Source: Escherichia phage DK-13. From it: a DNA stretch of 64,000 bases. Position numbers and translations under genes: made by a program. The DNA is taken from sequence record MT611523.1. The stretch is one strand, 5' to 3'. Position 1 is the first letter of the stretch; each line of letters opens with the position of its first letter. Below are positions 8,962-35,065 of this stretch, piece by piece. The notes below the pieces were generated by a model. It did no database searches. It worked only from the letters and a program-made list of their open reading frames with translations, and was not told the DNA's origin.

Positions 8962-9540
8962 TTACCATTCCAATATTTGTTTTTTAATTTCTTTTTGTTC
9001 TTTCACATTACTGGTAACGGTCTTTAAGAATTCATCCGTCACCAGACCTTTTGTCTTTTTCAAAACATCTTTAAGACTACCTTTGACTTTCAATGTTTCC
9101 ATATACATCAAAGCATCATCTGCATTAATTGTATAATATTTCATTAAAAGCTTTAACACAAGCTGGACGCTGACTACATCCGGCTCAGCCTTCGCCCATT
9201 TACCATAACGCTTGCCTTGCGGAACCGCATGCAGCAAATAATTATAATGCTGTTGGTCTGTTAACCCGGAACCAATTAAGTTCATCACGTTCACCTGCAT
9301 GATGCAATCGACATGTTGGCTCAATGCGTTTTCTAACCAGAATTTATTGTAGTTTTCCGATTGAATCAGGTTCCGTGGTTTTTTACTAACGGTTATGTCA
9401 TTAAGAATCGCGAACAATTCATTTTCTGCTTTCTCTTTGTATGAATCGGACAATTCCTGAATTTTGTTAAAGTCGCGTGATTTCCACGCAACCTCATGTT
9501 CGTTTAATTGAACGTCATCATCAAAGAGACTTACAGCCAT
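8962..9540 (-). CDS. 62: gp62 clamp loader small subunit
   Basis: 192 aa ORF between regA and 44, overlapping the 44 stop; T4 synteny and size. Confidence 0.85.
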   Translation of the reverse strand: MAVSLFDDDVQLNEHEVAWKSRDFNKIQELSDSYKEKAENELFAILNDITVSKKPRNLIQSENYNKFWLENALSQHVDCIMQVNVMNLIGSGLTDQQHYNYLLHAVPQGKRYGKWAKAEPDVVSVQLVLKLLMKYYTINADDALMYMETLKVKGSLKDVLKKTKGLVTDEFLKTVTSNVKEQKEIKKQILEW

Positions 9541-10490
9541 TTCATTTCCCCAGCCAGTTGAGCAAACAGATAAGTCAAGTGAACTTCGGTATTGGCTGCA
9601 ATGCCATGATACTGATTATTCTCACCCACAATCTCATACATACGGATGATGCTTGCACCAGTCAGTTTGCCATACATTTCATCAGCCAGCTTTGCAATGA
9701 AGCTTGAATAATCATTTGCATGCTTAGGAGCCAGCCCACGGAGAACTTTAAAGTTACGGTCCTTAAGGGCATCAATCACATCATCAATTGGTGTGCGATT
9801 GTTTGTCACGATGCTCAGAATACCGGAATCGATAACACCTTTTGCAGAGTAACGGTCAAGCTCATTAATTGTCTTACGCAGGTCCGGGAAGTTATGCTTA
9901 ACCAGAGCAGCAACAACTTTCAGGTCTTCGATTTCAACGCCTTCGTTTTTACATATCGCGACTGCACGATGAATCATCTCTTTCATCATAGTAGTCTGGT
10001 CAGCTGGAGTTGCTTCACCAAACTTAATTACGCGGCAACGAGACTGCAACGGAGTGATGATACCATCGATATTGTTCGCGGTCATAATGATTGAACAGTT
10101 GCTCGAATAAGCTTCCATAAAGCTACGAAGGTGTCGTTGTGATTCAGCCAGACCCGCACGGTCAAACTCATCGATAACGATTACCTTACGGCGTCCTTCG
10201 ATTGATTTAGATGATGCAAAGCGAGTCAATTCATTACGCACAAAGTCAATTCGACAATCGGAGCCGTTAACAAACAGCATATCAGAATTCGTATCCGCAC
10301 ACATAGCTTTTGCAACTGTTGTCTTACCAGTACCAGGGGAACTACTGACCAGAATCAAGTTAGGAATCAAACCTTTTTTAACAATCGCCTCTAATGTTTC
10401 TTTATCATGAGCCGGAAGAATACACTCTGATAATGTACCTGGACGGTATTTTTGTTCCCACATGAATTCTTTGTCATTAACCGTTAACAT
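9531..10490 (-). CDS. 44: gp44 clamp loader ATPase (AAA+)
   Basis: 319 aa; Walker A SSSPGTGKTT; same length as T4 gp44. Confidence 0.95.
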   Translation of the reverse strand: MLTVNDKEFMWEQKYRPGTLSECILPAHDKETLEAIVKKGLIPNLILVSSSPGTGKTTVAKAMCADTNSDMLFVNGSDCRIDFVRNELTRFASSKSIEGRRKVIVIDEFDRAGLAESQRHLRSFMEAYSSNCSIIMTANNIDGIITPLQSRCRVIKFGEATPADQTTMMKEMIHRAVAICKNEGVEIEDLKVVAALVKHNFPDLRKTINELDRYSAKGVIDSGILSIVTNNRTPIDDVIDALKDRNFKVLRGLAPKHANDYSSFIAKLADEMYGKLTGASIIRMYEIVGENNQYHGIAANTEVHLTYLFAQLAGEMKWL

Positions 10491-10546: not shown

Positions 10547-11242
10547 TTAATCTTGGAATTCGTGGCTAGAACCTTGTTCCATTGCAATCACATAGCTTGC
10601 TTGTGTACCTTCAAACTTCGTAGCAAATTTATCGTCTTTCGCCCAAAGCATAACACGGTAATCAGCCGGAATCATTTTCATGTTCAGTTTGTTAATGATA
10701 AATTTAAACGCTGCATCACCTTCGTAATCGCCACACACCAGGGAATACAATGGACGCGCTAACTCTTTATCTTCGAGCTGATTATAACCATGGATAACAA
10801 TCTTACCGTCTTTGTTGGTGATTGCAAAAGTATCCAGTGACAAACCACCAGCCACACGCAGAAGTTGCTGCAGGTCACTACCTTTCAGGTCGAAGATAAC
10901 CTTAGCTACCGGGAAAGGAATCTTCTTAGCAGGGAACACGATAGTGCTCGGGTCAGCCGCTGGCCAGTGAATCGTTGAACGTTGGTCTTTGATAATGATA
11001 TTCGATGCATCTTCAGCCAGAGATACTTCGGCTTGGTCAGTTACCAGGCCCAGGATACTTAAGAAGCCGTTCAGGTCATAAATTGCAGCTTCAAAGTCGA
11101 TTGTATCATTGATTTCAGATTCACCATATGACGCTCCAGTCACAGAACGAGTCAGGATGGTATTACCTGGCTTAAGCATAATGCCAGAGTAAATGGAAGT
11201 GAAGTTTTTCAGAACTGCGATAGTGTCTTTAGAGAATTTCAT
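10547..11242 (-). CDS. 45: gp45 sliding clamp
   Basis: 231 aa; strong similarity to T4 gp45 (MKFSKDT...IYSGIMLKPG...NFIINKLNMKM). Confidence 0.95.
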   Translation of the reverse strand: MKFSKDTIAVLKNFTSIYSGIMLKPGNTILTRSVTGASYGESEINDTIDFEAAIYDLNGFLSILGLVTDQAEVSLAEDASNIIIKDQRSTIHWPAADPSTIVFPAKKIPFPVAKVIFDLKGSDLQQLLRVAGGLSLDTFAITNKDGKIVIHGYNQLEDKELARPLYSLVCGDYEGDAAFKFIINKLNMKMIPADYRVMLWAKDDKFATKFEGTQASYVIAMEQGSSHEFQD

Positions 11243-11272
11243 TTAATTACCTTTTATTCAAATCAAAATTAA

Positions 11273-11704: not shown

Positions 11705-11896
11705 TTAATCAAAGTATTCATATGCAAACCAGGCATTGTGTCTGTTCGCGATTATTTTAACATATTCTTCACCGAAAGCGTTTTGTAAGTCACGTTCAGT
11801 AACAAGGTGTTCATCTTTCGAAAAGGTATTAACTAACACATATCGTTTAATTTCAGGGACAGCCAGTAAATGCTGCCCGGTTAAAAAATTGCTCAT
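11705..11896 (-). CDS. 45.2-like small protein
   Basis: ORF in the 45.2 position; internal start MSNFLT chosen to avoid overlap with the plus-strand HNH gene. Confidence 0.4.
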   Translation of the reverse strand: MSNFLTGQHLLAVPEIKRYVLVNTFSKDEHLVTERDLQNAFGEEYVKIIANRHNAWFAYEYFD

Positions 11897-11936
11897 AAAT
11901 AATATTATCCGTTGCAGTATCAAACAAGGGTCTGAT

Positions 11937-12653
11937 ATGAATTATAACATCATTTACCAAAAGCTTATTAGCAGAGCATTGAATCGCAAATTAACCACAT
12001 ACTCTGAAAGTCATCACATTATACCCCGTTGCATGGGTGGGGCAGACGACGCTTCAAATCTTGTTGATTTAACTCCCGAGGAACATTTCGTTTGTCATCA
12101 ACTGTTGGTCAAAATGCATCCAAATAATGCTTCTTTGGTCTATGCCGCGCGCATGATGACAGTTTCCTCACCAAACGCCGACAGAAGCAAAAACAAATTA
12201 TTTGGATGGCTTCGTCGTAAAAACTTGGAAGCTCAACAAAATAAAATTTTCTCCGATGAAACCAGAAAGAAAATGTCAGAATCCGCCAAATTAAAACCGA
12301 GAGTTGAATGTCCACACTGTGGAAAAACCGGTCTCGTTGGCAATATGAATCGTTGGCATTTTGATAACTGTTCCAAAGGTCCAAACAAGGTTGTTCATAC
12401 TATTCCAGAAAAACAAAAGCAAAAAATTTCAGTAGGATTAAAACAAGCTAAACATGAAATTTTAACTTGTGAATTTTGTGGTCTTGAAGGTAAAAAGTGT
12501 GTTATATCCACTCACCAACAATTCTGCAAATCCAATCCAAACCGGAAGAAAAAGGTGGACCCCAAAATTCAGTGTCCACATTGTAATGTAGTCGGTACGC
12601 CAGCCAATATGAAACGTTGGCATTTTGATAACTGCAAAATGAAGCCTCAATAA
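11937..12653 (+). CDS. Free-standing HNH homing endonuclease with three C-terminal zinc-finger repeats
   Basis: HNH motif SHHIIPRCMGG...SNLV.LTPEEHFVCH; repeats CPHCGKTGLVGNMNRWHFDNC, CEFCGLEGKKC, CPHCNVVGTPANMKRWHFDNC; opposite strand to flanking 45.2 and 46; AAGGG RBS before ATG 11937. Confidence 0.85.
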   Translation: MNYNIIYQKLISRALNRKLTTYSESHHIIPRCMGGADDASNLVDLTPEEHFVCHQLLVKMHPNNASLVYAARMMTVSSPNADRSKNKLFGWLRRKNLEAQQNKIFSDETRKKMSESAKLKPRVECPHCGKTGLVGNMNRWHFDNCSKGPNKVVHTIPEKQKQKISVGLKQAKHEILTCEFCGLEGKKCVISTHQQFCKSNPNRKKKVDPKIQCPHCNVVGTPANMKRWHFDNCKMKPQ

Positions 12654-12658
12654 GAGGC

Positions 12659-14341
12659 TCATTCCAGAACAGTAAATCGACCGACTTTTTTCATTTGAAG
12701 ATGCTGTCCATATGCTTCTGGGTCGTGTTCACGATGGCTAATGATAAACACGTTTTGACCTTCCAATTTATTAATAATTGCCTGGATAGCTTTGATGCCT
12801 TCGGCGTCAGTGGCTGAATCCATGACCTCATCCAGAATCAACGTACTAATTTGCACACCAGATACTTTCGCAGCAATATCACGCCATGTAAACAGCAATG
12901 CGATATCGATACGAGCTTTTTCACCCTGGCTAAATGATGCATAGCTGAAGTCTTCACGTCCACGAGATTTAATCGTTTCGTTGAACTCTTCATCTAACGT
13001 AAAACTATAATCAGCTTCCATAACTTTAAGATAAGCGTTTATCTGCTTATTAAAGATAGGAATATATTTCTTAATAATCGCGCCCTTAATACCAGAATCT
13101 TTCAACATATCCGTTAAGATACCACGTTGATATTTTTCCATCACAAGGTCGGATTTTTGTTTGACTATTTTATCAAGCTGGTCTTGAAGCATTTTAATGT
13201 CTGCTGCATGGTCAATAAATTCCGACTTAGCTTGCTCGATTAATGCTTTAACCTTTTTAGCTTTTTCGACAGTCTGGACTAAGGTTTGTTTCTTAGTTTG
13301 AATGTCTTGAGCTATTGTACGCTGGTTTTGTCTTGCCTTGGTATACGCATCAAATTGCTCTTGAACAGCATTCTGGCGAGCTTTATGCTTATCAGCTGAT
13401 GCATTACATTCTTCAATCTTTGACTCAATCCTGGCGACAATGGGGTCTCCTGGATGCAACTGACTGGCACAAGTCTGACAACAACCACCTTTCTCGTACA
13501 GACCAACAACCTTTCGGTAATCGTCTATCTTCGACTTAATCAGGAATGATTCCTGCTTTAACTTCGTGAGTTCATGCTCAGGGTCTTCTCCCAAGATTAT
13601 CTCGGTCAGTCTTGTTGTTGCTTCTTCGATAGTCGTCTTGATTCCACGTGCTTCTGTGGCAAGTTCATCATACATCGTTTGCAGCCGCAACAGATTATCA
13701 CCTGATAATTTTCTTTGACGGTCTTCGTTGTCCTGATAGATTTTAATCTGTTGAACAATACCATCATGCTGCACATCCATCACCTGGATTTGACTATTGA
13801 CTTCACGGATAAGAGATTTGTTCAGCTTATCCATATCGGCCAGTACAGAAACCTCTAAAAGGTCTTCGACGAGTTTTCTTCTTGCAGGAGTGGATAGGCC
13901 CATAAAAGGGGTATATCCAGCTGTGCCGAGTACGACAATCTGTTTGAAGCTTGCGTAGGACATTCCAATGAGCTGTTCAAATTCCGCTTGGAAGTCTTTA
14001 CTGCTGGCAGATTCATCAAGACGTTTACCGCCACAAGAGATTTCAAAAACATTGGGTTTTTGCCCGCGTTTGATATAGTATTCTTTTCCATCATATTCCA
14101 TCCACAATTCAACGAGCATATCTTTTTTGTTGCTCGAGTTAATCAACTGGCCTTTCTTTACATCACGGAAAGGCTTACCGAACATAGCAAAGGTAACCGC
14201 TTCAAGGAACGTAGATTTACCCGCACCATTCTTGCCGGTGACCAGAGTTTTTTGGACTTTATCCAGTTCAACAGTAATCGGTTGAGCACCAACCGACATA
14301 ATATTTTTATAGATAACTTTCTTAAGCTTAAAAGTCTTCAC
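12659..14341 (-). CDS. 46: gp46 recombination nuclease subunit (Rad50/SbcC-like)
   Basis: 560 aa; Walker A GKNGAGKST; coiled-coil middle; same size as T4 gp46. Confidence 0.95.
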   Translation of the reverse strand: MKTFKLKKVIYKNIMSVGAQPITVELDKVQKTLVTGKNGAGKSTFLEAVTFAMFGKPFRDVKKGQLINSSNKKDMLVELWMEYDGKEYYIKRGQKPNVFEISCGGKRLDESASSKDFQAEFEQLIGMSYASFKQIVVLGTAGYTPFMGLSTPARRKLVEDLLEVSVLADMDKLNKSLIREVNSQIQVMDVQHDGIVQQIKIYQDNEDRQRKLSGDNLLRLQTMYDELATEARGIKTTIEEATTRLTEIILGEDPEHELTKLKQESFLIKSKIDDYRKVVGLYEKGGCCQTCASQLHPGDPIVARIESKIEECNASADKHKARQNAVQEQFDAYTKARQNQRTIAQDIQTKKQTLVQTVEKAKKVKALIEQAKSEFIDHAADIKMLQDQLDKIVKQKSDLVMEKYQRGILTDMLKDSGIKGAIIKKYIPIFNKQINAYLKVMEADYSFTLDEEFNETIKSRGREDFSYASFSQGEKARIDIALLFTWRDIAAKVSGVQISTLILDEVMDSATDAEGIKAIQAIINKLEGQNVFIISHREHDPEAYGQHLQMKKVGRFTVLE

Positions 14342-14556
14342 AAAAGATTCCTTTTAATGTATCTTTTAGACCATTCTATCATATCATCATAATCTAAAAA
14401 GCATTCATCAAATTCAGCCATGTAAACCACTCCCTGCGCCGTTTTTGATGTGATATAAATTATTCCGACATATCTAGAATCTTCTTCGGTATAATCAATA
14501 TTTGCTACAAATTCATCATCAAGATTAAATTCAAAAGTCTTCATCATAATAAGCAT
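14338..14556 (-). CDS. Hypothetical protein (46.x)
   Basis: 72 aa ORF between 47 and 46 with overlapping stop/start. Confidence 0.45.
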   Translation of the reverse strand: MLIMMKTFEFNLDDEFVANIDYTEEDSRYVGIIYITSKTAQGVVYMAEFDECFLDYDDMIEWSKRYIKRNLL

Positions 14557-14794
14557 CCTTGATGCATGATTCAGCCATATGAATTAATGTCTCTGGAGTA
14601 TCATCTTCCATTACATTAAAGCTAAATTCCACGGCCCAATCGGTGACTACATAGACTTTGATAAGTTGACCAGTTTCCCGGTCAGTGATAGCTTCAAACC
14701 AATACTTAATAGTATTCGGTTGATTATCGTCGTCAACCACAGCACATTCGCGGATATGTTCAAGACCCGCTTCATTAAAATCATAAAGTCTCAC
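14531..14794 (-). CDS. Hypothetical protein (46.x)
   Basis: 87 aa acidic ORF between 47 and 46. Confidence 0.45.
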   Translation of the reverse strand: MRLYDFNEAGLEHIRECAVVDDDNQPNTIKYWFEAITDRETGQLIKVYVVTDWAVEFSFNVMEDDTPETLIHMAESCIKDAYYDEDF

Positions 14795-15810
14795 GGTTGC
14801 ACCTCAAGGTATAATTTGTTGGCCAATGCTTTGAGAGCTTTTGATTCTTTCTCATTGGCGTCAGGTAATGCATCGATATATTCTGCCATCATATCTGTTA
14901 AGCGTTTTATGTCTAACTCTTCATCAGAGTCTGATGTGTCAACACTGTTATCAACCTTATTGACAACACGCAATTCATGCACACGCTTTTCTAATTCAGA
15001 TTCGAACTTGGTCAGGTCTTTATCGACTTTTTCTACAATAACACGGACTGATAAGTCTTTGAAGTCGTCGTAGTTAATAGTTTCGTTTGGATAGAAAATC
15101 TTCCGATGCCAGGTGGTTTCATTCGGAATAAATTTCATCTCTTCGGTTTCGGTATCAAATTCCCAGAACCCGCGCGGGTCGTTCTCGTCACCTGCTGTTA
15201 ATGTCCATGGTGTCCCGATGTACTTAACGTTTGCAGCTTCTGAAATTGTGTGGAAGTGACCAGACCAAACTTGCTTGTACTTCTTAAGGAAATCAGGCTC
15301 AAGTCCGTGGGATTTCAATCCTTTATAGAAATAAAACCCGGTTAATTCCCAGTGACCGATGCAATATTCAGCCCCAGAAGTTTTGATATGTTGGTGAATG
15401 TCAGTTGCGTTCTCGTCACACATCCATGGAATCATATCAATCTGACAACCGTCAAAATCAACAGTCGTTGGCTTATCGTAGATTTTAACATGGTCATACT
15501 TATTCAGGAGTTCAGTGATAGCATTAGGATGAATCTTATTCTTCAGATTCATGTCATGGTTCCCGACTATCGTGTGCATAGTAATTCCTGCTTCACGAAG
15601 GAGTTCCATAATCTCACGGCTGAATTCCATCGTCTTATGCGTTACGGCCTTACGGACGTCAAAAATATCACCATATTGAATCCAGACTTTAATCCCATTC
15701 GCTTTGGAATATGCAATCGCCTGTAAAATACCATCGCGTTGAATGTTTTGAGCCCATGGGTCGTCAGCTTTGACACCTAAGTGCCAATCACCTAAATTTA
15801 AAATTTTCAT
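14791..15810 (-). CDS. 47: gp47 recombination nuclease subunit (Mre11/SbcD-like)
   Basis: Calcineurin-like phosphoesterase motifs (GDWHLG, GNHD); start taken at MKILNLGDWHLG, giving 339 aa as in T4. Confidence 0.93.
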   Translation of the reverse strand: MKILNLGDWHLGVKADDPWAQNIQRDGILQAIAYSKANGIKVWIQYGDIFDVRKAVTHKTMEFSREIMELLREAGITMHTIVGNHDMNLKNKIHPNAITELLNKYDHVKIYDKPTTVDFDGCQIDMIPWMCDENATDIHQHIKTSGAEYCIGHWELTGFYFYKGLKSHGLEPDFLKKYKQVWSGHFHTISEAANVKYIGTPWTLTAGDENDPRGFWEFDTETEEMKFIPNETTWHRKIFYPNETINYDDFKDLSVRVIVEKVDKDLTKFESELEKRVHELRVVNKVDNSVDTSDSDEELDIKRLTDMMAEYIDALPDANEKESKALKALANKLYLEVQP

Positions 15811-15993
15811 AAGCCAAGCGCCGTTATCGCAGTGCAAAATAAAATTATTGAAATGAACCCGTCAGGAGTGGAAAAGAATCCTATCCAACAAGCTCTTGTG
15901 AATGTGTAGAATGCCATGAATAGCACGACATATCCTAAAAATAATTCCATATACTCTCCTCAGTTGGTTCATTTTATCATCCCGAATATAAAG

Positions 15994-24228: not shown

Positions 24229-24999
24229 TTATTCATTATTCTTTTTCCTAGCATCAGAAGCAGCTTTTCTTCTAGTTCTAGTCCTTTCTAAATCAGCAGC
24301 AATCAAATTAGCTATATTAGTAACCGGATTACCAAATTCATCATAAGTAATATATTTCCAAGCATATCCAAATGTATGATTTCTCTCATTAAGCAGGCAC
24401 CTTTTAATAGCGCTGCCTGCTTTATAAATTGAAAGAAATTTAGCTGCATCTGGTAAATAATCAAAAGTTTCTACCAATTCACCTGAACTTAAATCAAATG
24501 CACCAAAAAGCTCAATAGTGTATTTACTCCTATCAAGACTGGCTTTAGCTTCATGCTTTAAGTGGTTTATTTCTTTTAGAATTTTAAGGTCTAATTGTCC
24601 TGGTATTTTATCTATCTGTACACCCATTCTAGATAAAGCATACCCCATTTTATAGTTTCCTGATTTGGCCAACCAATAGTGAGCCATAATATGGCTTTCT
24701 ATACTTAGATTTACAAGATTCCATTTAGACGTTTTAAATTCAGGAAATAAGGATTTAGGTAATATATGGTGAGACTCGGTTTTACCTTTTATTAAAGGCC
24801 CGGAAGACTCTATTAAAGAGAAATAGTTTTCAGCAAATTGCCAATAAGGCAATTTGCTTTTAAGAAGTTCTTTAATTTCGTCTAAGGTTTTAGTAGGCTT
24901 AACGGTCACTCCAATAGCTTGATACTTCAAAATCAGGCTCGCCGTCGTCCCAGTACCAGGGACCCACCGGATGCCAATCGCCATGCTTATCTTCTTCAT
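24229..24999 (-). CDS. Free-standing HNH homing endonuclease with C-terminal DNA-binding module
   Basis: HNH motif ESHHILPKSLF...WNLVNLSIESHIMAHYWL; C-terminal region resembles homing-endonuclease DNA-binding modules; inserted between 49 and nrdC; start uncertain. Confidence 0.7.
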   Translation of the reverse strand: MKKISMAIGIRWVPGTGTTASLILKYQAIGVTVKPTKTLDEIKELLKSKLPYWQFAENYFSLIESSGPLIKGKTESHHILPKSLFPEFKTSKWNLVNLSIESHIMAHYWLAKSGNYKMGYALSRMGVQIDKIPGQLDLKILKEINHLKHEAKASLDRSKYTIELFGAFDLSSGELVETFDYLPDAAKFLSIYKAGSAIKRCLLNERNHTFGYAWKYITYDEFGNPVTNIANLIAADLERTRTRRKAASDARKKNNE

Positions 25000-32844: not shown

Positions 32845-33293
32845 TTTTTGTCCTCGAAGTGGATTACAGGACACATCTTAGATTTACGAGCTTTAATGTA
32901 TTGAATAACGATGTTTTCTTTAGTTTCCTTTCCTTCACGTTTGGCTAGAATACGTTGCCATTCCTTTTCTTCTTTACGTAAATCATACCATGCGTGTAAA
33001 TTCATCGCACCTAATGCCAAACCAATGGATAGTGCAATAATAAGAGCTATTGCAACCAACCCTAAAACAAACCCTAGACTCAACAGAACAGGAGTACTTA
33101 ATACAAAGAAATTCTCTAATACACCAACGCCTGCAACAGTTAATCCGAAAAGCGTACCACCTGCAACAACAGCACAAGCAAAACAAGCCCAAACCATTTT
33201 CCAGAAATAAGCACATAGAGAGTGCGGTCGAGAATGACTGTCATAAAAACGGTCATGTAATTTAACGTGCCAAGAGTTTGCATTGATAATCAT
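32841..33293 (-). CDS. Membrane protein
   Basis: 150 aa; two to three hydrophobic helices, basic C-terminus. Confidence 0.5.
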   Translation of the reverse strand: MIINANSWHVKLHDRFYDSHSRPHSLCAYFWKMVWACFACAVVAGGTLFGLTVAGVGVLENFFVLSTPVLLSLGFVLGLVAIALIIALSIGLALGAMNLHAWYDLRKEEKEWQRILAKREGKETKENIVIQYIKARKSKMCPVIHFEDKK

Positions 33294-33303
33294 AATATTT
33301 TCC

Positions 33304-33864
33304 TTAAGAGTTCATAGTTGGGATAACAGAGTTCAGATAAGAGACTAAAACTTTTAGCTCGTCCTTAGTAAATACCACTTCATTAAAACCATCGTGTACT
33401 TGGGTAATACATAGTTGGTCACGACCGCCATGTTGAACAACAGCCAGTTCAGTATTATAATTCAATTCTTCTTCGTCGCCATCAAAGGTTTCACTGGAGC
33501 GAATCAGCGCATCTTGACCTGGTACTTTCCATTCAACTTCTGGCTTGCATTCTTCCTGGAAGAGTTTGAAAATACAATCAAAGAATTTATCAGAATCGCT
33601 AATGCTTAAGCATTCTGTATCGGTTTCAATATTAAACCCATCTTCATTTTTATAAACTTTGACCCATAAATCATAATTGATATCAAACGATGCACTATGA
33701 CGTCCACCAAGATAATCCTGTTTATCTAAAACCTTTAAATCATAAAGCGGTTTAATATCTTGGATAGTCAGTACGATTTTATCGTCTTCTTGACAAAGTT
33801 CAATTGCATTATTAACTACTTCAGCGGTCAGTTCGCCAAACAATTCAGTTGTTTCAATAATCAT
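33304..33864 (-). CDS. Hypothetical acidic protein
   Basis: 186 aa ORF. Confidence 0.5.
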   Translation of the reverse strand: MIIETTELFGELTAEVVNNAIELCQEDDKIVLTIQDIKPLYDLKVLDKQDYLGGRHSASFDINYDLWVKVYKNEDGFNIETDTECLSISDSDKFFDCIFKLFQEECKPEVEWKVPGQDALIRSSETFDGDEEELNYNTELAVVQHGGRDQLCITQVHDGFNEVVFTKDELKVLVSYLNSVIPTMNS

Positions 33865-33874
33865 TTTCTGTTCC

Positions 33875-34165
33875 TCAACGGTTATGTTTTAAAATACTAT
33901 AAAGTGCTTCTACTTGGCTTGCATCCAGGTAAATAACATCATCATCTTGCTCAATGGAAATCCCACCGGTATTTCCTTTAACAAAATTACATTCGCATAC
34001 TTCAACTGGGCGGTATACGTCACCAACTGGATGCTCAGGCTCCAGAACAATCACACCATTTTCAGAATTACCACTTGGGTCATATAACATTACAGTTTCC
34101 TCGCTAACCATGAAAAGAATAAACCAATTAAAACAGGCCCTACAGCCATTGTTAACCAAGCCCAA
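33875..34165 (-). CDS. Hypothetical protein
   Basis: 96 aa ORF. Confidence 0.4.
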   Translation of the reverse strand: MGLVNNGCRACFNWFILFMVSEETVMLYDPSGNSENGVIVLEPEHPVGDVYRPVEVCECNFVKGNTGGISIEQDDDVIYLDASQVEALYSILKHNR

Positions 34166-34181
34166 GGTTCAAGATAGTAAA

Positions 34182-34439
34182 TCATCTCATGCTCCTGTGC
34201 CAGCAATTTCGTGGCTCACGTTTAAAAATTTTGTCGTGCATTGATTGACAACCAACACAATATATCACACCTTTAATCGCTTGTCTCCGCGCTTCAGGAA
34301 TTTTTTCGTCGCAGTCAAAACAGAATTCAGCAGACTCCCTTTCAACTGCAACTTGTGCTCTCGCATGGGTGATAGCGGCTTGGACAACCGCTTCCATCTC
34401 TAACTGTTCAGCACCATCTTTTGCAAATCCAACAGCCAT
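34182..34439 (-). CDS. DksA/TraR-family C4 zinc-finger protein
   Basis: 85 aa; CFDCDEKIPEARRQAIKGVIYCVGCQ matches the TraR/DksA C-terminal zinc finger. Confidence 0.5.
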   Translation of the reverse strand: MAVGFAKDGAEQLEMEAVVQAAITHARAQVAVERESAEFCFDCDEKIPEARRQAIKGVIYCVGCQSMHDKIFKREPRNCWHRSMR

Positions 34440-34621
34440 TATTCTTTCAACTCATTCAGATAAGCAATTAATTCTTCTTTAGAACTATTCAAATCACGCT
34501 TGCACTGCTCTATTCCAGAATATGAATAACCTTCACAATATTCAACAGCCAGGTCATTAGCAGCATTTTCAATATGCCATGCGAGTTTAATAATTTTTTC
34601 AATTTGTTCAGTAGTTAACAT
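34439..34621 (-). CDS. Hypothetical protein
   Basis: 60 aa ORF; start overlaps upstream stop. Confidence 0.4.
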   Translation of the reverse strand: MLTTEQIEKIIKLAWHIENAANDLAVEYCEGYSYSGIEQCKRDLNSSKEELIAYLNELKE

Positions 34622-34625
34622 AATG

Positions 34626-34862
34626 TCACCAGTATTTGTTAATGGTAGAAATTAATTCTTGGACTTGAGTGGTCTTCAGCTTGCACCCACAACCCTTTAA
34701 GGTGTCTTTAAGGAGCCATGGTTCCTTGAGCTCATCCTTTTCCAGGCGGATTCTATATCCGCGGTAATCAGCAAATATGCTTCCGTCATCAAATATCTTA
34801 ATTTCAAGAATATGATTATTGGTTTCATATTCCAATGAAACCATGGTATTTGTAAGTTTCAT
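34626..34862 (-). CDS. Hypothetical protein
   Basis: 78 aa ORF. Confidence 0.4.
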   Translation of the reverse strand: MKLTNTMVSLEYETNNHILEIKIFDDGSIFADYRGYRIRLEKDELKEPWLLKDTLKGCGCKLKTTQVQELISTINKYW

Positions 34863-35065
34863 TATTCCACCACATATGATAATGAGAAAATTGCTGATGA
34901 AAGATGGGTAGCATCTTCTTCACACAGTTCAAATGGAGCTTTCTGTAAGAGTTCAACCACTTCTTCATCAGTGGCACTGTCCATAAAGATTGCATAATTA
35001 TTAAGATAGATAACAACCTCATCACCAGTATTAACTGCATCAATCTTGATATTTTTAATTCTCAT
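34862..35065 (-). CDS. Hypothetical protein
   Basis: 67 aa ORF preceded by a family-A promoter cassette. Confidence 0.45.
   Translation of the reverse strand: MRIKNIKIDAVNTGDEVVIYLNNYAIFMDSATDEEVVELLQKAPFELCEEDATHLSSAIFSLSYVVE

Follow-up and report, generated by a model that had tools for sequence, protein, structure and literature searches.

Why an endonuclease gene should lie antisense within a block of phage replication and recombination genes, how it came to be there and where its product would cut are the questions raised by the interval between genes 45.2 and 46 of Escherichia phage DK-13. The window analysed here is a stretch of 64,000 nucleotides from this T4-like coliphage of the genus Gaprivervirus (sequence record MT611523.1), and positions are those of the window unless stated otherwise. 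An intact open reading frame (ORF) of 238 codons on the plus strand, from an ATG at 11937 to a TAA at 12651-12653, separates the minus-strand runs 62-44-45-rpbA-45.2 and 46-46.1-46.2-47 (Table 1). The 2.6-kb stretch around it matches Escherichia phage P479 at 98.5% identity and phages SP18, CJ20, RZ and VR20 at 93-95%. A preliminary description of the locus had recognised an HNH endonuclease gene on the plus strand of a minus-strand operon, and this is borne out. We consider it probable that the gene encodes an active Mob-type homing endonuclease that is expressed late, binds DNA through fingers of the I-TevIII type, nicks or cuts within the 3' end of gene 46 in phages lacking the gene, and is copied into them together with a resistant, recoded end of gene 46.

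By family, the protein is an intact Mob-type HNH homing endonuclease with a presumed catalytic function. The whole protein matched phrog_655 'homing endonuclease' in PHROGs (E=8e-67), its C-terminal part also matched phrog_12324 'intron-like DNA endonuclease', and residues 1-105 are 46% identical to RB3 MobE (BLASTP, E=2e-25). A Foldseek comparison with viral models returned T4 MobB (2.9e-10) and MobC (1.1e-8), plus many 'Mob-like' proteins. Since neither the whole protein nor its fingers gave a Pfam or NCBIfam match above cut-off, the assignment rests on PHROGs, on BLASTP similarity to MobE and I-TevIII, and on Foldseek; a sequence search of the Protein Data Bank returned weak HNH-motif matches only. 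The AlphaFold (AF2) model, with a mean predicted local distance difference test score (pLDDT) of 88.6, has a beta-beta-alpha HNH core, which matches 5h0o_A and 8w1p_G. In an alignment of 30 orthologues sharing 40-77% identity, residues H26, H27, N41, H50 and H54 are invariant, so that the catalytic HH dipeptide is followed by the conserved Asn and metal-binding His/Asn of beta-beta-alpha-Me HNH enzymes. The N-terminal domain is homologous to those of MobA-E, and, as with other Mob-type genes, the gene is free-standing, intergenic between conserved genes and variably present in close relatives. A NUMOD3 (PF07460) match in the linker scored 11.9 bits against a cut-off of 20.4, and many homologues carry a precomputed PF07460 hit. 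In total 3,683 homologues were found at E<1e-5; among the best 120 of these the number of fingers ranges from none to four, with one in most, and the 238-residue form with three fingers is characteristic of the nearest orthologues.

The preliminary description saw three Cys4 repeats in the C-terminal part. Three finger motifs are indeed present, but their spacing is C-x2-C-x11/12-H-x3-C, that is C2HC, and the third ligand, which the Cys4 definition (CxxC...CxxC) would have as cysteine, is an invariant histidine (H141, H193 and H229). All 12 zinc ligands are invariant across the 30 orthologues. Two of the repeats had also been called nearly identical, which holds for the second halves of fingers 1 and 3 (NMxRWHFDNC, 29/30 identical at the DNA level) but not for the whole fingers, which share 14 of 21 residues. 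Each finger is predicted in the AF2 model to fold as a beta-hairpin followed by a helix. All Pfam zinc-ribbon models remained below their cut-offs on the protein, and the 64-kb window contains no further stop-free copy of the finger pattern in any frame. Residues 154-236, comprising fingers 2 and 3 and the spacer between them, align with I-TevIII residues 180-266 at 37% identity over 93 columns (BLASTP, E=9e-12), and the tandem motifs are thus homologous to I-TevIII residues ~209-266. Each CX2CX12-13HX3C finger of I-TevIII binds one zinc; DNA binding depends on these fingers, and the dimer interface of that enzyme lies in its C-terminal ~75 residues, which include the finger region (PMC1865063). 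Because the DK-13 fingers match fingers that bind zinc and DNA, the array is plausibly a DNA-binding module by analogy, as had been proposed for it.

The C-x2-C-x12-H-x3-(H/C) spacing, together with the predicted beta-hairpin and helix, also invites a bolder interpretation, which we hold to be quite improbable, namely that the fingers correspond in phages to the classical zinc finger of eukaryotes. Throughout the family they would then form a re-assortable modular array for reading DNA, in which the number and order of fingers set the length and specificity of the target and conversion between fingers within the gene retargets the enzyme; the element would be directed at the gene for a Rad50-like nuclease subunit that processes the element's own breaks. 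As a separate observation, finger 3 of Dhakavirus MX01 is CPHCGKQGNSGNMNRWHFDNC and resembles finger 1 of the same protein, finger 3 of Dhakavirus FB is CPHCDKVGIPANMKRWHFDNC and resembles finger 3 of the window, and the gene 46 tracts next to these two genes (see below) are 68-78% identical. These differences suggest separate acquisitions in MX01 and FB, or conversion between fingers.

Comparison of the junction with relatives, which the preliminary description had proposed, revealed sporadic presence of the gene. Five of ~41 gaprivervirus records carry it (P479, PSD2001, MN01, Yersinia phage vB_YenM_P8 and TH15), and the site is empty in ~36, including SP18, VR7, VR20, VR25, VR26, CJ20 and RZ, a count in which RefSeq duplicates are included. 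Relative to SP18, the sequence at window positions ~11888-12660 takes the place of ~45 bp. P479 and PSD2001 encode a protein 100% identical to that of DK-13, annotated 'homing endonuclease' in GenBank. T4 had been described as having no mobile element here, and its site is indeed empty (45.2 at 33058-33246 and gene 46 at 33302-34984 of T4), but its close relative RB32 has the same gene at the same place. This RB32 orthologue (ORF054w, 60% identity) has the same antisense orientation, as do those of Dhakavirus MX01 and FB (73-77%) and of the Klebsiella Marfavirus pzk-kv8 (73.5%); the gene is absent from this site in JS98 and Marfa. Altogether ~128 phage records contain a copy at ≥60% identity. 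ORF054w was annotated in 2006 as a 'putative site-specific intron-like DNA endonuclease, similar to mobB' and was counted among the 'mob-like HNH' genes in 2010 (PMC2993671); no publication on an endonuclease located at 45.2/46 came up in the literature searched. Neither loss of the catalytic HNH residues nor presence of the gene here in all relatives, the two findings that would have spoken against the preliminary description, was observed. Judged from these comparisons, the association of gene and site is old, widespread and already annotated. The idea of a recent invasion consequently stands in part: spread within Gaprivervirus does look recent, since the cassettes described below are 96.6-100% identical on different backbones, but the association itself is old, with orthologues of 60-77% identity in RB32, MX01, FB and pzk-kv8.

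The clearest indication of how the gene has moved comes from its flanks. Six carriers, the window included, were aligned with four non-carriers over ~11.6 kb spanning the site, and positions were counted as fixed where all carriers agree on a base found in no non-carrier. Of the 54 fixed positions, 41 fall within 12660-12854, the last ~65 codons of gene 46; of the others, six are in the first three codons of 45.2 (11885-11893), seven at the insertion edge and one elsewhere. Across 12660-12860 the carriers are 94-100% identical to one another and 69-83% identical to the non-carriers, and from 12860 onwards identity returns to 94-100% among all. The tract is not a general hot spot of variation, because the non-carriers are 98-100% identical to one another within it. 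TH15 is 97-100% identical to the non-carrier VR7 throughout the region except for the cassette, and the window has the same cassette on a backbone like that of CJ20 and SP18; the cassette has therefore moved between backbones. Carriers share its tract at 96.6-100% identity, and the closest other sequence in 50,697 phage records reached at most 75%, so that the donor lineage of this part of gene 46 is unsampled. MN01 has a short non-carrier patch at 12725-12740 within the tract, as would be expected from heteroduplex repair. Compared with SP18, the tract differs by 30 synonymous and 13 non-synonymous codon changes; the part of the Rad50/SbcC-like ATPase encoded there contains the Walker B motif (LILDEV) and the H-loop (FIISHR).

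One-sided tracts of this kind were found at the end of gene 46 in four genus pairs, window/SP18 among them, each with 180-300 nt at 55-85% identity followed by an abrupt return. The tract is ~240 nt long in RB32/T4, 240-300 nt in MX01 and FB versus JS98, and ~180 nt in pzk-kv8/Marfa, and identity beyond it is 92-100% in three of the genus pairs and 80-98% in the more divergent pair pzk-kv8/Marfa. On the 45.2 side, ~10-15 nt differ in each genus pair. Natural populations thus present both an identical cassette on two backbones and one-sided tracts beside the gene, and on this comparative evidence the one-sided tract is a signature of homing with co-conversion. At the left edge, the cassette replaces the strong GAGG ribosome-binding site of 45.2 that is found at the empty site. 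In MX01, FB and pzk-kv8 the insertion places ~770 bp between gene 46 and 45.2, and 45.2 is without an obvious ribosome-binding site. In JS98 (1689-1692) and Marfa (1701-1704; positions in the compared segments) the stop codon of gene 46 overlaps the start codon of 45.2 in the sequence ATGA, which suggests translational coupling of the two genes.

These tracts bear directly on where the enzyme would act. The preliminary description placed the target at the 45-46 junction, which is not the best reading, as the one-sided tract points inside the 3' end of gene 46. Because it covers ~195 nt of gene 46 and only ~10 nt of 45.2, and does so in four genera, the cut site probably lies within the last ~200 nt of gene 46 and not at the junction. 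A conserved junction target is further argued against by the empty junctions themselves, since these differ between genera, with a spacer of 34-55 bp in SP18 and T4 and the 4-nt ATGA overlap in JS98 and Marfa. The free-standing endonucleases of T4 cut within neighbouring conserved genes and co-convert the flanks (PMC2988022), and such 'intronless homing' with a distant cut in a neighbour has been described for SegG and gene 32 (PMC2988022) and for MobE and nrdB (PMC2790892). The tract of the carriers probably holds a resistant version of the cleavage site. A candidate block lies at ~12672-12700, in the gene 46 codons for MKKVGRF, where three of five non-carrier representatives (SP18, VR7 and T4) have GTTGGTCGATT and the other two, JS98 and Marfa, are each one base off; of five carrier representatives, all but MX01, which keeps the non-carrier sequence, show a synonymous change here (e.g. 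CGA to AGA). As a part of the recognition site this block is a weak lead.

Signals for expression were sought on both sides of the gene. A late-promoter-like element upstream, CATAAATA, begins with the three bases of the antisense start codon (CAT) of 45.2. A perfect TATAAATA occurs ~30-40 nt before the ATG of the RB32, MX01, FB and pzk-kv8 orthologues, overlapping or abutting the antisense start codon of 45.2, in spacers that have otherwise diverged. The gaprivervirus copies have C for T at the first position of the element (-13), the least conserved position of T4-like late promoters (PMC1524935). Because TATAAATA is not enriched in the window (5.2 matches expected and five found, each of them on the minus strand), the argument for a promoter is one from conservation among orthologues, and a generic scan for sigma-70 promoters and terminators returned nothing above chance near the gene. 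From this conservation we infer that the element is the late promoter of the endonuclease gene. Transcription from such a promoter on the 'late' strand would confine expression strictly to the late phase, and early and middle transcripts would not read through into the gene; endonuclease-specific promoters in T4 are middle or late (PMC2988022). A Shine-Dalgarno-like sequence follows, and AGGA or AAGGA stands at the same place in the orthologues.

Downstream, at the point of convergence with gene 46, is a hairpin whose loop contains the stop codon of the endonuclease gene and which abuts the stop codon of gene 46. It is predicted to fold with -14 to -17 kcal/mol in a 44-nt context (ViennaRNA), and it is kept in MX01, FB and pzk-kv8 and, with a different stem sequence, in RB32. 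A U-rich tail, UUCAUUUUG, follows it on the gene 46 sense strand only. The hairpin may thus be a one-directional terminator brought by the cassette, and may stop early and middle transcripts that would otherwise run antisense through the endonuclease gene.

Taken together, the mobile cassette would consist of the late-promoter-like element, the endonuclease gene, the hairpin, the recoded last ~195 nt of gene 46 and a few codons at the start of 45.2. In the late phase of a mixed infection, RNA polymerase with gp55 would transcribe the gene from (C/T)ATAAATA on the strand opposite to the surrounding early and middle genes, and the three C2HC fingers would recognise an extended site within the conserved 3' end of gene 46 in the co-infecting non-carrier. 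The MobE-like HNH domain would then nick this site, or cut both strands if the finger domain dimerises as in I-TevIII. The break would be resected and repaired from the carrier genome, copying the endonuclease gene and the stretch between cut and insertion sites, and the many, mostly synonymous changes in the copied stretch would make the carrier's own gene 46 resistant.

Several points weigh against this account. On its right the tract ends at an invariant block, TTTACxTGGCGTGATATTGC, and this boundary may therefore mark the first usable homology and not proximity to the cut; no single block distinguishes every carrier from every non-carrier across genera; the C at the first promoter position may mean that expression is weak; and the literature searched held no cleavage or expression data for the protein or any orthologue. 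The boundary in particular would also suit an enzyme that recognises the empty junction between 46 and 45.2, much as the endonucleases encoded in introns recognise the place where the intron inserts, the insertion itself destroying the site. The tract would then be donor DNA that hitch-hiked with the gene, its high divergence protecting the tract against erosion by recombination. That the insertion replaces the whole junction (the ~45 bp in SP18), that the empty junction of JS98 and Marfa is a tight overlap of the two genes, and that the tract ends at the first invariant block, as if homology alone set its boundary, all fit such an enzyme. It is nevertheless unlikely to be the correct explanation, since orthologues have invaded junctions as dissimilar as those described above, since conversion on both sides would be expected and the 45.2 side amounts to only ~10 nt in all four genus pairs, and since the characterised free-standing endonucleases of T4 cut inside neighbouring genes (PMC2988022).

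The same promoter mismatch, confined to this lineage, could instead indicate that the gaprivervirus gene is a decaying or domesticated passenger, unexpressed and immobile with its promoter damaged to CATAAATA, and kept by linkage or for the terminator and start region that it offers its neighbours. Since 45.2 has lost its original ribosome-binding site to the cassette, and gene 46 is now followed by the cassette's terminator-like hairpin, a clean deletion might be costly, as has been argued for promoters embedded in T4 endonuclease genes (PMC2988022). Yet all six carriers retain an intact ORF, with 97-100% identity between the proteins and with catalytic and zinc residues preserved, the presence of the same cassette on at least two backbones requires recent transfer, and -13 is the most tolerant position of late promoters (PMC1524935); we regard a passenger as very improbable. 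Divergence of the 3' end of gene 46 independently of homing, whether through selection arising from convergent transcription or overlap with the endonuclease gene, or through ordinary mosaic recombination in gene 46, has in its favour that T4-like genomes are mosaics and that other stretches of gene 46 vary by backbone, for example 13160-13960 between SP18-like and VR7-like genomes. It is hardly credible here, given that the tract and the endonuclease gene occur together without exception on different backbones and in four genera, that the tract begins exactly where that gene ends, and that the sequence there is so uniform among non-carriers.

Among known systems, close parallels include the Mob enzymes of T-even phages. 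The gene shares with MobE of RB3 the N-terminal motif MNYxxIY...SHHIxPxCxGG...NL..L...EH, a free-standing, sporadic occurrence between conserved genes and flanks that are co-converted, as described for MobE and nrdB (PMC2790892). It differs from MobA-E in its location at 45.2/46 and in its inferred target, gene 46. Unlike the promoterless mobE, it has an apparent late-type promoter of its own, and its three-finger C-terminal domain is without detectable similarity to that of MobE. Its antisense orientation is also unusual, as all T4 endonuclease genes except segD follow the orientation of their neighbours (PMC2988022). I-TevIII offers the likeness in the fingers and in the spacing of catalytic residues (H26, H27, N39/41 and H48/50, those of I-TevIII being H26, H27, N39 and H48; PMC1865063), but I-TevIII is encoded in the nrdB intron of RB3 and has two fingers, whereas the DK-13 enzyme is free-standing and has three. 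The HNH domains of the two are not aligned by BLASTP, and the catalytic module of the DK-13 enzyme is therefore of the Mob type. RB32 ORF054w and the other orthologues share the length of 238 residues, three fingers, site, antisense orientation and 3' hairpin, but are 60-77% identical and have TATAAATA upstream, whereas the gaprivervirus allele has CATAAATA and a gene 46 tract haplotype of its own. SegG and gene 32 provide the model for an intergenic endonuclease gene with a distant cut in a conserved neighbour, one-sided co-conversion and marker exclusion, as summarised in the part of PMC2988022 that cites Liu et al. 2003; SegG, of the GIY-YIG type, makes double-strand breaks, whereas the DK-13 enzyme is of the HNH type with a cut site predicted from the tract.

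The neighbouring genes were assigned from the list of ORFs and the annotation of P479 and SP18 (Table 1). A longer, TTG-started ORF at 11736-12653 was rejected as the gene, as it overlaps 45.2 and every orthologue starts with MNY at the ATG. On the minus strand at 24229-24999 the window contains a second Mob-like HNH ORF of 256 residues with the motif ESHHILPK...NLVNL...SH, which also matches phrog_655 (E=1.2e-28), has no C2HC fingers and no Pfam match, and is probably another free-standing homing endonuclease gene. In VR26 (739-1371 of the compared segment) and TH15 (~745-1605), gene 45 and rpbA are separated by an additional gene of ~630-850 bp, annotated 'putative DNA endonuclease', where the window has an empty site (11243-11272); the VR26 protein gave no Pfam or PHROG match. 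With this extra gene, a span of 1.5 kb in the block of replication genes includes at least two sites that an endonuclease gene may or may not occupy. Gene 46.1, a small gene found in the window, P479 and RZ, is missing from the annotation of SP18 and VR7, in which 46.2 directly follows gene 46 (at ~7600 of the compared segments L015 and L018). Identity between the window and CJ20 falls to 62-80% at 14100-14400.

Table 1. Coordinates of the endonuclease gene, its predicted signals and domains, the cassette edges and the neighbouring genes in the DK-13 window
Feature	Position	Strand	Details
Free-standing HNH homing endonuclease gene	11937..12653	+	238 residues
Domain layout of the 238-residue protein			Mob-type HNH, residues ~1-105; weak sub-threshold NUMOD3-like match, residues 102-117; three C2HC zinc fingers
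Zinc finger 1	12309..12371	+	CPHCGKTGLVGNMNRWHFDNC; C125, C128, H141, C145
Zinc finger 2	12468..12527	+	CEFCGLEGKKCVISTHQQFC; C178, C181, H193, C197; aligns with I-TevIII finger I
Zinc finger 3	12573..12635	+	CPHCNVVGTPANMKRWHFDNC; C213, C216, H229, C233; aligns with I-TevIII finger II
Late-promoter-like element CATAAATA	11894..11901	+	one mismatch to the T4 late element TATAAATA; 36 nt upstream of the ATG
Shine-Dalgarno-like AAGGG	11926..11930	+	6 nt before the ATG
Hairpin AGCCTC-AATAA-GAGGCT	12643..12659		convergence point of the endonuclease gene and gene 46
Putatively co-converted tract	12660..12854	-	last ~65 codons (~195 nt) of gene 46; fixed carrier/non-carrier differences
Cassette left edge	11885..11896	-	first codons of 45.2 (MSNF versus MADF); carrier/non-carrier comparison
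Gene 62	8962-9540	-	
Gene 44	9531-10490	-	
Gene 45	10547-11242	-	
rpbA	between gene 45 and 45.2	-	
Gene 45.2	11705-11896	-	
Gene 46	12659-14341	-	Rad50/SbcC-like ATPase
Gene 46.1	14338-14556	-	between gene 46 and gene 47
Gene 46.2	between gene 46 and gene 47	-	
Gene 47	14791-15837	-	

The gene is a known kind of element, an uncharacterised member of a group that combines Mob-type catalysis with I-TevIII-type fingers, and an identical protein is already in GenBank; as a catalogued type of selfish element, it adds little by itself. What the analysis adds is the corrected chemistry of the fingers (C2HC), a natural record of co-conversion and a predicted target narrowed to the 3' end of gene 46. 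The orthologue group joins a MobE-like HNH domain, which probably nicks, to a finger domain that in I-TevIII drives dimerisation and double-strand cutting. This combination makes the group well suited to addressing how a nicking HNH enzyme can promote homing, a question raised in PMC2988022.

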